DNA from: Pseudomonadota bacterium
Lineage (GTDB): Bacteria; Pseudomonadota; Gammaproteobacteria; Burkholderiales; SG8-39
Reading direction: 5' to 3'
Assembly: GCA_040752005.1 (NCBI GenBank)
Contig: JBFMFX010000009.1
Coordinates: 59,543 to 123,542 of the forward strand
Length of the DNA stretch: 64,000 bases
Numbering within the stretch: position 1 is the stretch's first letter; each line of letters opens with the position of its first letter. Both the position numbers and the translations under genes were made by a program. Positions 5,564-8,514 of this stretch are shown here, piece by piece. The notes beneath the pieces are model-generated. The model had not been told where the DNA came from. It saw only the letters and a list, made by a program, of their open reading frames with translations, and ran no database searches.

Positions 5564-8008
5564 CTAGAAAGTCGTCTCGGACAAGCCTTCGACTTCCGGC
5601 ACGAGATTCAGCCAGCGCACCACTCGGCTGGTCTCGGCCAAGGTAAGCGGAATCGTCAAGGCGGCGAGCAGCCGCATCCCCTCGAGCGCGATGGCCGCGG
5701 GCGGCCGGCGACCGGGCAATTTCGCACCAAGCGCGTGCAGGCGTTGCCAGGCGATCGTGAGCGCACTGTCGACGTCACCCGCTGCCAGGCGAGCGGGAAT
5801 CTCGGCCGGCAGACGCAAGTTGCGATCGGGCGGAAGCCAGCCGAGATAGCGCAGGGTGGACTCTGGTGTGAACATTACCTTGAGGAGCGCATACGCCGGC
5901 CGCAGCTCCGCCTGAGCGCGCGGCGTTTCGATTCCGGCGAGATCGGCGCAAGCCAATCCGGCCAGCAGCTCAGCGATGCAGCGGTCGTCGGTATGTCCAT
6001 CGAGGAAGTACAGCACGTCGCTGACGCTGGCGCCGGTCGTGCTCCACAGCAATTCGCCCTCCGCACCGAGACGCACCGCCTCAAGCCTGCGCCGGTGCAA
6101 CACTGCTGCCAGATTGCGCTCGATCTTTCCGGGACCCCAGCAGACCAACGACGCGGCCTCCGATTCCCAGGTTGTGCCGTCCATTTTCACGGGTACGAGA
6201 TGCGGCCGCAGCGACAATTGCACGCTGCGGCTGCCGCCATTTTTGCTGCGCAACCTGAGCCCAGCGAGCGCAAGGGCGACGCGGAACTCCGCACTCCCGT
6301 CATCCGCGCGTTGCACCCATTGCGTTGACAGCGTAGGCACTGGCCCGATCACTTTTCGGATGTCGGCGCTGGTGGCGCACAGCGCTTCAATACGGCCGAG
6401 CTGGCGCAAAACGTGCTGGACCGCCACGCGGCTCGCGCGTTGCGTCAGGGCGAACAAGGCCCTGTCGAGCTGCGCGGCAGCCGAGCGGAATACGCCTGGT
6501 GTTTTATCGTCGCGCGCATAGCGTTGCACCTGAGCGAGCCAATCTCGGTGCTCCAGATCGTCGATCAAATCCGCGTCGGCATTGCGCCGAACAGTGACGC
6601 GTGCGAGCGGTGTTGCGAGAAACGCTTTTCCAGAACGCATGAGAAAACCGAATCGCTGGAAAGAACGGATCCCGCGGTCTACGCCAAGCCGCGCCACAGC
6701 GCGCGCAAAGTCCAATCCGTCGCGCGCCGGCCGTATCCCGAGAGCCGCCCGACCCTCGCTGAAAAGTGCGAATGCCTCTTCGATCGTCCAGAAATCACGC
6801 CAAAGCGGCATCCATATCTCGCCGCGCGCGTCGGCGTCGTCGCTCTGCGCCCCAGCGCCTTCGGTGCTCAGTCGGCTGCGCACCGTGAAAGGTGCAGACA
6901 GAACCGCGCCGCTCGAAGACTCCAAGCGACGTACCGCCGCTGCTGCGAAAAGCAGCGCACCTTCCAGCATCAGGATGAAATCCCAGGGATTGATGCGCGC
7001 ATTGCCCTCGAATCCTGAGCTGCCGTTCGGGCCGCCGGCGTTACCCGGAGCGAACTGACCGATGGCGCGATTGTCGAGGGCGGCCACAGGGGTTCCCATC
7101 AATGCAGCCTTGAGCAGCGCACCCGCTTCAGGTTGCGCGCCACCGTGGTCGAGGTTCAAAACCTTGGCCAAGTTCTGCATGAAGTTGGCCGTGAAGTCGA
7201 GGTTTCCGTCGTTCCCGCCCGTTCCCAGCAATGGCGGGTACTCGGGTTCGCCTTCGGCCAAAACGAGCGATGCATCGACCCACCTCAAGGTCGCGTCTGC
7301 GGCGACGTTTCTAAAGTACTGGATGAAAGCATCCTTGACCCTCTCGGGCTTGTTCTCCGGCGCCTTCGTCAGTCCAAACCTCGCTATGGCATCGCGCGCA
7401 ATCTTGATGGCTTCGCGGTAGGCGCGGAATCGTGTCGCCGTGGATCGTTCGATTGCGGCGAGGCTGCGCGTCGCCTCGGTCGGCTGGTCACGCACGCCAG
7501 TCTTCTGCCTCTTGCCGGTGACGGGATCACGTTCTTCCAGTTTTCCCTCCTGGAAATAAAACCCGCTGCCTGCGTTCCATGGCGCAACGATCGGTGTCGG
7601 CTCGTACAGCTCTAGAAAGAAGCGAAACAACTCGTCTTCAGTAAATTGCGTACGCAGCACGAACACATCGTCACGCCAGCAACCGGCTGCATTTCGATCG
7701 CCGGCCTGCTCCGCAACGAGCCGCAAGACAGCGAGCGCCTTGAGGTAGGAGGCCAGTGGTGTCGGTGTGCAACCGAGCAGGATGATTTCATTCCGGCCGC
7801 CGCTCGCGGAATAGGTCTGCTGCGGTTCTTCGGCCTGCGGCGCCTTCTCCCGGCCCGAGGCGGCGCGTGTGCGCTCGGCGTGCGCTGTCAGCCGGTCCAG
7901 CGCTTCCAGCCGCTCGCGTAGCGTCAGCGCGCGCCAGCGTCTCAGTTGCTCGCGGCGGCTGCCGTCGAAGGTAGTTTTCGACCAGTCGATGCGATCCTGC
8001 TCGCTCAT
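5564..8008 (-). CDS. csx17: Csx17 (Cas8u2 large subunit) of type I-G, with an extra charged N-terminal region of about 75 aa
   Basis: The conserved block [25 protein letters not shown]...[17 protein letters not shown] is typical of the Csx17 N-terminus but begins only at about residue 76. The ATG (8008-8006) overlaps the upstream gene's TGA (8007-8005). A GAGG sequence lies 7 nt upstream. Confidence 0.85.
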
Positions 8009-8514
8009 GGTCCGACCTCGTTATCGAGAATCCAGCGCAGATGCTGAATGTCGTCCAGGTCACGCGGCCTGCCGGCTGCCTCCTTCATCTGGATCAGAGT
8101 AGGGAGGGAAACGAACCGTACGGGCAGCCCGGGTGCGATCTCGCCCTGGAGCGCCTTCCCGATCTCCTGGTGAAAATCGAACGGCTCGTACACGAACACA
8201 TCCACCGAAGTCTCGGGATGATTGTCGCTGAAGAAATTGAGCACCCGCATGCCCTTTTCCTTGACCCAGCGACGCCGCTGCGCCTCGCTGGCGAACTGGT
8301 CTGCGGAAATGGGCACGCTCGGGCGATAACCGATCCTAGCAAGAGCAGCGAATGCTGCGACGACATTGTCGGCGTCTAGGGCGACGACGAGATCGATATC
8401 GGCAGTGAAGCGAACATAGCCGTGGGCGTTCACCGCCAGACCGCCCGCCACGAGATAGCGCACGCCGGCCTCGTTGAGCGCCTTGGTCACTGCCTCGAAT
8501 GCGTCGAGCCTCAT
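8005..8514 (-). CDS. Minimal nucleotidyltransferase-fold protein (169 aa) embedded between cas3 and csx17
   Basis: The sequence [44 protein letters not shown] fits the pol-beta NTase signature hGGx13DhD. The C-terminal [20 protein letters not shown] is typical of small uncharacterised NTases. A strong AAGGAG lies 5 nt before the ATG at 8514. ATGA overlaps occur with the cas3 stop (8513-8511) and with the csx17 start. I discarded the upstream 74 aa of track ORF 8005..8736. Confidence 0.8.

Follow-up and report, generated by a model that had tools for sequence, protein, structure and literature searches.

A predicted MenT1-like nucleotidyltransferase, and its putative small partner fused to Csx17, in a type I-G CRISPR-Cas operon

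The DNA considered here is a stretch of 64,000 nucleotides from a Pseudomonadota bacterium (Gammaproteobacteria; Burkholderiales; SG8-39), corresponding to positions 59,543 to 123,542 of contig JBFMFX010000009.1 in GenBank assembly GCA_040752005.1. The whole stretch is referred to as the window and supplies the coordinates used throughout, and the subject of the analysis is a small nucleotidyltransferase (NTase) gene embedded in the CRISPR-Cas operon that it carries. Matches to Pfam and NCBIfam, together with the translations, revealed a complete type I-G CRISPR-Cas locus, entirely on the minus strand, with the signature set of the Cas8g1/Csx17 variant: cas3g, csx17, csb1, csb2, a cas4-cas1 fusion and cas2, accompanied by a CRISPR array. 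For the I-G core genes, the scores against the NCBIfam equivalog and exception models all exceed cut-off. The NTase gene occupies the junction between cas3g and csx17, where the following features are found (aa, amino acids; ORF, open reading frame).

8511..11060, minus strand: cas3g, helicase-nuclease (TIGR02621, E=2e-229; Pfam DEAD, Cas3-like_C_2 and Cas3_HD)
8520..8525, minus strand: AAGGAG ribosome-binding site of the NTase gene, 5 nt before its ATG and within the 3' end of cas3
8005..8514, minus strand: NTase ORF of 169 aa between cas3g and csx17, predicted to be MenT1-like (DUF1814/AbiEii superfamily), candidate toxin
5564..8008, minus strand: csx17, fused ORF of 814 aa (TIGR04113)
7793..8008, minus strand: N-terminal extension of Csx17 ('ext'), residues 1-72, putative small partner of the NTase in in-frame fusion
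7871..7990, minus strand: conserved core of the extension, residues 7-46, with a low-complexity linker after it
7811..7831, minus strand: hEPxxxY linker motif, E60-E-P-Q-Q-T-Y66, some 10 residues before the Csx17 core
5564..7792, minus strand: Csx17/Cas8g1 core, residues 73-814, large subunit of the I-G Cascade (TIGR04113, E=2.9e-191; 8b2x_M, E=2e-164)

The arrangement described in the original prediction, which was made from the sequence letters, is borne out: the 169-aa ORF shares an ATGA with each neighbour, its ATG (8514-8512) overlapping the TGA of cas3 (8513-8511) and its own TGA (8007-8005) overlapping the ATG of csx17 (8008-8006), and the AAGGAG stands 5 nt upstream of its start. The AGG-x13-DID signature (A23-G24-G25, D39-I40-D41) and the C-terminal block (K144...L159) that had been pointed out in the protein are likewise present. 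A scan of the operon for promoters and terminators found nothing above shuffled expectation. That the gene is no chance neighbour, as had also been argued, is evident from its conservation in relatives. Homologues number 2077 in a word-index protein search, and among the top 120 of them identity is 67-100% and the length nearly always about 169 aa; in an exhaustive search of 50%-identity representatives, 4866 clusters passed E<=1e-3 and 114 of them E<=1e-30. Several metagenomic contigs carry an identical copy in an unchanged gene order, and in Hydrocarboniphaga (72% identity) the order cas3, 170-aa NTase, 814-aa csx17, csb1, csb2, cas4/1 is the same as in the window. Across four relatives the ratio of nonsynonymous to synonymous substitution rates (dN/dS) is 0.13-0.16 for the NTase, compared with 0.18-0.29 for cas3 and 0.17-0.29 for the csx17 core, values that are approximate because dS is near saturation. 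The NTase gene is thus real and under purifying selection. In tblastn searches of plasmid and phage collections neither the NTase nor Csx17 was detected, and the module therefore looks chromosomal; a scan of IMG/VR yielded one distant match, at 27%.

The affinities of the NTase become visible with profile and structure comparisons rather than with family thresholds. No match above threshold was obtained in Pfam, NCBIfam or PADLOC, and NCBIfam returned nothing at all; besides AbiEii, the sub-threshold Pfam matches are DUF6036, NTP_transf_5, DUF2204 and Aminoglyc_resit (E=0.007). PADLOC gives a weak AbiEii match, and some homologues have a precomputed match to PF08843 or PF19502. In an alignment of 29 NTase sequences, G24, G25, A27, G32, R35, T37, D39, D41, P68, R80, D105, K144, R149, D152, D155 and L159 are invariant, and eleven of these positions (G24, G25, R35, T37, D39, D41, D105, K144, R149, D152 and D155) are all kept in 80 of 85 NTases from related loci. 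The catalytic motifs of the DUF1814/AbiEii superfamily, hGG, RxTxDxD, a third acidic residue and K...R..D..D, are all present. When a profile of the family was compared with PDB sequences, one convincing family emerged, that of Mycobacterium tuberculosis MenT1 (Rv0078A; E=6e-12). An AlphaFold2 model of the protein (predicted local distance difference test, pLDDT, 95.4; predicted template-modelling score, pTM, 0.90) led to the same enzyme, as ranks 1-5 in a Foldseek search of the PDB are all MenT1 chains (8an5, E=2e-7, template-modelling (TM) score 0.70, 169 aligned columns), followed by TM1012, ANT(2'')-Ia and LnuA. Pfam and Foldseek comparisons of the protein, which the original prediction had put forward as checks, thus gave a sub-threshold AbiEii assignment and MenT1 as the top fold. 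In the pairwise alignment, at about 24% identity, RFTADIDL of the NTase pairs with RFTRDVDI of MenT1, and the MenT1 residues T39, D41, K137 and D152, which are reported to be essential (PMC10435456), correspond to T37, D39, K144 and D155. MenT1 adds CMP to the 3'-CCA ends of tRNA and is neutralised by a 68-aa helical antitoxin, MenA1, which induces auto-phosphorylation of the toxin at T39, the phospho-acceptor (PMC10435456, PMC11375011). The profile match, the fold and the residue mapping together indicate that the NTase is, by predicted fold and motifs though not by Pfam threshold, a MenT1-like member of the DUF1814/AbiEii superfamily.

The start of csx17 proved informative as to a partner of the NTase. 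TIGR04113 covers residues 75-797 of the 814-aa ORF, both PADLOC Cas8g models start at residue 75 or later, and the solved Cas8g of Thioalkalivibrio sulfidiphilus (8b2x_M, 720 aa) starts 7 residues before the conserved NEIVLxGC core and has no extension. When the first 120 residues of Csx17 were used as a query, many short proteins of 66-110 aa with a common motif were recovered, among them a 73-aa protein encoded beside a 73%-identical NTase in a deltaproteobacterial metagenome-assembled genome (MAG). The shared features are a conserved Trp/Gly motif and two helices. The N-terminal ~72 residues of Csx17 are, on this sequence evidence, a separate conserved element that is taken to be the NTase partner. 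In the csx17 of the window, no in-frame ATG, GTG or TTG is located close to the point where the extension meets the core; the core lacks a start codon of its own, and Csx17 can therefore be made only with the extension.

The generality of the pairing was assessed in the best 80 of at least 477 NTase relatives in species-representative genomes (51-79% identity), which come from Proteobacteria, Nitrospirota, Verrucomicrobiota, Gemmatimonadota, Acidobacteriota, Planctomycetota and other phyla. Directly downstream of the NTase the partner motif was found in about 66 loci by tblastn and in 78 of the 80 by a hidden Markov model of the motif, and of the two loci without it, one lies on a contig that stops 15 nt past the NTase and the other has its NTase interrupted by an insertion. 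Free-standing partners are 57-111 aa long, and all but one or two of them begin inside the NTase gene, giving an overlap of 1-23 nt at its stop codon. Ten natural single-chain fusions of NTase and partner were also recovered (206-250 aa, 37-56% identical to the reference fusion), several of them substituted at catalytic positions, and an AlphaFold2 model of one such fusion has a pLDDT of 80-91 over the partner helices and a pTM of 0.85. Strict adjacency, translational coupling and gene fusion therefore make a physical and functional pairing of NTase and partner very likely. The partner itself has no match in Pfam, NCBIfam or PADLOC, and, if its predicted role is right, it represents a newly defined family of small proteins that pair with MenT1-like NTases, the latter having at least 477 relatives in species-representative genomes. 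The original prediction had remarked that no HEPN-like partner was visible; there is indeed no HEPN gene, yet the small partner, downstream in 78 of 80 loci and fused to Csx17 in the window, had been overlooked.

The partner motif is also found at the N-terminus of other ORFs: a 394-aa protein with a SEC-C motif (L055, 1951-3135), a DapF-like ORF of 340 aa that may be a read-through (L056, 10497-11519) and a 192-aa protein (L054, 1581-2159), which suggests that the partner is a portable N-terminal module. In one protein (P0207) NTase and small partner form a single chain together with a Fic-like domain. The hEPxxxY motif that follows the extension recurs in the fused loci and, among free partners, in the C-terminal tails of the longer ones, and could be a contact peptide or a modification site.

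Wherever the module separates cas3 and csx17, one uninterrupted reading frame runs from the partner into csx17. This fused arrangement is present in 12 loci of the genome set and in 7 more of a metagenome set described below; in a thirteenth genomic locus, from a Hyphomicrobiaceae MAG (L039), the module is split by an insertion. The latter, about 8 kb long (~6020-14240), cuts the NTase after about residue 149, opens with an ORF resembling a type III RAMP protein (Cmr1-like), and is followed by partner::csx17, which resumes at 14244. Other associations with type I loci take different forms. Three loci (L046, L054 and L058) have NTase and partner as separate genes directly upstream of the cas3 of a I-G locus whose csx17 carries no extension; L047 encodes a Cas3g of 1119 aa with the partner as its N-terminus, and Cas8g2, Csb1 and Csb2, which mark the other I-G variant, come next; and L057 has the two separate genes ahead of an I-C-like operon. 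When 85 NTases were arranged in a neighbour-joining tree, those linked to CRISPR loci fell into at least four distinct lineages, namely the main clade, which includes the window, L038 with L049, a Nitrospira clade, and L047 with L054 as well as L046 on its own. The module has thus joined type I CRISPR loci at least four times. Three separate lineages of the NTase have the partner joined to Cas8g1, and a single locus has it joined to Cas3g. The fused form has been kept from relatives in the Xanthomonadales/Nevskiales to the Nitrospiraceae, with purifying selection on both parts, and in all 17 I-G-embedded NTases with a near-full-length match the eleven conserved residues are intact.

The CRISPR connection is only part of the distribution of the family. 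Where at least 3 kb of flanking sequence is available on both sides, no cas gene is found nearby in at least 30 of 51 loci, and the pairs lie either alone amid unrelated genes or in toxin-antitoxin and defence islands, such as that of L015 with its PIN/Phd pairs. As the 80 loci are those closest to a query borne on a I-G operon, the CRISPR-linked share of the whole family is overestimated. A homologue of the WYL regulator that is encoded upstream of the operon in the window accompanies the module in 21 of 80 loci, cas-free ones included, and the order WYL, NTase, partner is found in at least seven cas-free loci (L020, L028, L055, L071, L080, L082 and L087).

The junction itself was surveyed in metagenomes with a scan anchored on the conserved N-terminus of Csx17, using a Csx17 reference devoid of the extension; 80 of at least 542 relatives were considered, and 72 loci had both the end of cas3 and the start of csx17. 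In agreement with the earlier statement that canonical I-G operons have no gene at this position, the gap is shorter than 200 nt in 52 of the 72, while inserts longer than 250 nt are present in the other 20. Seven metagenomic loci carry the NTase with partner::csx17, six of them within the 20 inserts and the seventh (L097) on a short contig without cas3. The module is therefore a minority but recurrent I-G variant, amounting to roughly a tenth of a biased sample, and it stands beside inserts of other types. Four inserts (L098, L101, L140 and L142) encode a Fic-like domain that is continuous with the Cas3g frame and has a near-canonical motif, HPF[TP]DFNGRxTR; these sites also hold a small ORF, read in a different frame, whose SxxxEG motif we take to resemble the Fic-inhibitory motif of the VbhA type. 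The remaining inserts include VapBC-like pairs, DUF433/PIN-like pairs, a PDDEXK protein and an ORF6N protein. The cas3-csx17 junction is thus a general landing site for toxin-antitoxin-type cargo. In one of the six inserts with the module (L099, 3332-3499) the NTase is internally deleted and the partner::csx17 fusion is intact. Two proteins, P0123 and P0124, in which the first ~85 residues of Cas3 are joined directly to the small partner, suggest decay by deletions across the junction. The survey also changes what can be read from gene packing: the tight overlaps from which a CRISPR role had been argued are real, yet cassettes of several kinds settle at this junction, which weakens any argument from packing alone.

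The remainder of the locus, and the genes upstream of it, are as follows.

1..316, minus strand: CRISPR array of 36-nt repeats, four of them complete and a fifth truncated at the window edge
554..844, minus strand: cas2, 96 aa, assigned from its translation and its position beside cas1 and the array
847..2556, minus strand: cas4g/cas1g fusion (NF049935, E=1e-251)
2611..2970, minus strand: DUF6883 ORF, 119 aa, between csb2 and cas4/cas1
2967..4523, minus strand: csb2, cas5/cas6 fusion (TIGR02165)
4533..5540, minus strand: csb1, cas7g (TIGR02570 and PF09617)
11784..12371, minus strand: Fic-like ORF upstream of cas3 (PADLOC candidate PDC-S04, E=1.4e-9)
12397..13371, minus strand: HTH-WYL-WCX (HTH, helix-turn-helix) transcription regulator upstream of the operon (Pfam WYL, WCX and HTH_11; PADLOC WYL)
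13475..13762, minus strand: small XRE-type HTH gene upstream of the locus

The array, whose 36-nt repeat reads GCTTCAATGAGGCCGCGGCTTTTCGCCGCGGAGAAC on the plus strand, runs off the start of the window. A search upstream of cas3 for an ectopic, CreA-like copy of the CRISPR repeat gave an 11-nt match, which is at chance level. The Fic motif of the Fic-like ORF in the window is degenerate (RPFAAFNGRATR). The DUF6883 ORF overlaps the csb2 stop by 4 nt and has a homologue in L054 (58% identity); its 119-aa product had been named, along with Cas3 and Csx17, as a candidate to be tested for binding to the NTase, but it does not co-occur with the NTase across loci and is ruled out as a conserved partner. 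In other I-G loci the junction of csb2 and cas4/cas1 holds 1.1-2.8 kb of varied cargo, for example a SEC-C-motif protein in L014 (15536-17056).

These observations are best accommodated by a scenario in which the NTase is the enzyme half of a two-gene module resembling MenT1/MenA1 that has been built into a lineage of type I-G operons, where it would act as a toxin-antitoxin or abortive-infection module with its neutraliser tethered to Cascade; a probability of roughly 0.55 may be assigned to this reading. The free NTase would arrest growth, most likely by extending tRNA 3' ends as MenT1 does, and the N-terminal ~50 residues of Csx17 would bind and neutralise it, either by occlusion or by inducing auto-phosphorylation at T37, as MenA1 does with MenT1, or by both. 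The toxin would in effect be stored on Cas8g/Cascade, and its neutralisation would hinge on a continued supply of intact Cas8g, so that the NTase would be released, and the cell halted, whenever the Cascade large subunit is lost, shut off, degraded by proteolysis or inhibited. The outcome would be an addiction module or a back-up abortive-infection module. The fusion has probably strengthened a link that started out as simple co-regulation within defence islands, since the unfused module occurs beside cas3, beside an I-C-like system and beside a lone WYL regulator. The reading is favoured because of the homology of the NTase to a toxin, the autonomous two-gene lifestyle of most well-flanked copies, the active-site substitutions in single-chain fusions and the decay seen in L099, where a decayed NTase next to an intact partner::csx17 is the order of loss expected for a toxin.

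Several points weigh against this scenario. Toxicity, activity on tRNA, binding and phosphorylation are all carried over by homology from an enzyme with which the NTase shares about 24% identity, and the Pfam AbiEii match (PF08843) reaches 18.6 bits (E=0.0019), below the cut-off of 22.5. The partner, when compared with PDB sequences, gave chance matches only (E ~1) and no link to MenA1, and the order of the genes, toxin first, is the reverse of that in MenAT1. A nonsense or frameshift mutation in the downstream part of csx17 would leave an N-terminal antitoxin peptide, and strict addiction to a functional Csx17 is thus not guaranteed. Finally, unrelated toxin-antitoxin cassettes (VapBC-like and DUF433/PIN-like) share the cas3-csx17 junction, so that a hot spot for insertions may account for some of the association.

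An alternative scenario, unlikely but the most serious of those considered, is that the NTase is a non-toxic accessory enzyme of Cascade, recruited to the interference complex by the extension of Csx17 or Cas3g acting as a docking domain, with crRNA (CRISPR RNA) or target 3' ends, or Cas8g/Cas3, as examples of possible substrates. Covalent tethering to two different effectors, Cas8g1 and Cas3g, and the strict retention of catalytic residues in all I-G copies are what such a scenario would predict, the tyrosine of the hEPxxxY linker next to the docking domain could be the site that is modified, and the Fic-like domain at the C-terminus of Cas3g in other I-G loci suggests that attaching enzymes is a wider habit of these systems. 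It is more difficult to reconcile with the at least 30 of 51 well-flanked loci that have no cas genes and look like autonomous two-gene cassettes, with a nearest characterised relative that is a bona fide toxin, and with single-chain fusions that are often substituted in the active site, as expected if the free enzyme is harmful.

Less probable again is the notion that the module is a selfish toxin-antitoxin passenger, a mobile cassette that settled in a permissive junction and is kept by addiction, with a neutral fusion to csx17 that arose when a stop codon was lost and adds nothing to CRISPR immunity. Inserts in 20 of 72 I-G loci, several of them unrelated toxin-antitoxin pairs, the variable cargo of the csb2-cas4/cas1 junction, and the decayed copies (L099, L039 and the fragments P0123 and P0124) would all be in keeping with a passenger. 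On the other hand, the link to CRISPR recurs in at least four NTase lineages and in three settings, with the module inserted at the cas3-csx17 junction, placed ahead of cas3 or placed ahead of an I-C-like operon; the in-frame fusions arose independently; and the fused form has been retained under purifying selection from the Xanthomonadales/Nevskiales to the Nitrospiraceae.

A more elaborate version of the toxin scenario, and a rather doubtful one, holds that a tRNA-modifying toxin is kept latent on the N-terminal docking domain of Cas8g or Cas3g and is set free by a change in the state of Cascade, be it upon R-loop formation, recruitment of Cas3 or attack by an anti-CRISPR protein. Were this so, type I systems, which target DNA, would possess an RNA-guided dormancy or abortive-infection output like those of types III and VI, and the same design would be seen a second time in the Fic-like domains that sister loci attach to Cas3g. 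The occurrence of the unfused module beside cas3, and the fusion of the partner to either Cas8g or Cas3g, make such fine-tuned allosteric release less likely than simple tethering or co-regulation.

The original prediction had assigned the protein to NTases of the MNT type or of signalling systems, and of this the toxin-antitoxin affiliation stands. It is very improbable that the NTase is an antitoxin of the HEPN-MNT kind or a cyclic-nucleotide synthase feeding an effector: the generic GG...DxD signature is all that points that way, no Pfam match to PF01909 or PF18765 was found, and there is no adjacent HEPN gene, the neighbours being cas3 and csx17 in the window and the small W/G-motif protein elsewhere. 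The proposed signalling function found no support, as there is no PADLOC match to CD-NTases (cGAS/DncV-like nucleotidyltransferases) or to CBASS (cyclic-oligonucleotide-based antiphage signalling systems), 169 aa is about half the size of a CD-NTase (roughly 300-400 aa for cGAS/DncV-like enzymes), and the best structural matches are MenT1, TM1012, ANT(2'')-Ia and LnuA, with cGAS appearing in Foldseek at E=0.06 and TM 0.30. That the gene is an antibiotic-resistance NTase of the ANT(2'')-Ia or LnuA type, in the operon by chance, is scarcely credible, for the Foldseek similarity (TM ~0.57-0.62) and the weak Aminoglyc_resit match are accompanied by a sequence identity of only 13-16%, by strict pairing with a small partner and a WYL/defence context that do not fit, and by absence of the gene from the plasmid collection.

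Toxin-antitoxin genes are often found near cas genes. To our knowledge, the RNA-based CreTA system is the sole toxin coupling to type I effectors that is understood mechanistically; here the coupling would be protein-based and covalent, with the predicted neutraliser for a toxin like MenT residing within the Cascade large subunit across a whole I-G clade and within Cas3g in another variant. If so, the module offers a simple and testable case of the long-standing idea that immunity is coupled to dormancy or suicide, and I-G effectors purified from strains that carry it may bring along an extra enzyme. For annotation, the consequence is that 814-aa Csx17 proteins are to be regarded as chimeras, and that the 169-aa gene is one now named hypothetical or AbiEii-like. 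Full-text literature searches, which took in a 2025 review of the coupling between toxin-antitoxin and CRISPR systems, turned up neither I-G operons described as containing an NTase nor any report of an antitoxin fused to Cas8; the paper on accessory genes by Shmakov (2018) may contain a mention.

Among known systems, the canonical I-G operon of T. sulfidiphilus (PDB 8b2x; PMC9638904) has all the core genes in the same order as the window but no gene between cas3 and csx17, and its Cas8g is without the ~72-residue extension. The type VII module HepT-MntA likewise pairs a small NTase with a second gene, but there the NTase is the antitoxin and the partner a HEPN RNase, whereas here there is neither a HEPN gene nor a match to the MNT family. 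AbiE (AbiEi/AbiEii) and MenT3/MenT4 share the NTase superfamily, as the weak PF08843 and PADLOC AbiEii matches indicate; in them the NTase acts as the toxin and there is a link to phage defence, yet AbiEii and MenT3 are about 290 aa long and follow an upstream COG5340 winged-helix antitoxin that is absent here. Closest by profile and fold is MenAT1 (Rv0078A/Rv0078B; PDB 8an4, 8an5 and 8rr5), with which the module has in common a minimal one-domain NTase with the T/D/K/D residues conserved and a short helical partner without a DNA-binding domain. It differs in an identity of about 24%, in the length of the enzyme (196 aa in MenT1, 169 aa here), in the partner, which is upstream there and downstream here, in the fusion of that partner to a Cas protein, and in the lack of sequence similarity between the partner and MenA1. 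The nearest concept is CreTA, in which a toxin is also coupled to Cascade and cells come to depend on the effector, but in that system the coupling is RNA-based, a crRNA-like antitoxin guiding Cascade to repress a toxin RNA (PMC9458426, PMC12737573), whereas here both parts would be proteins, linked through a covalent fusion of the predicted antitoxin with Cas8g, and the two systems are unrelated by descent.

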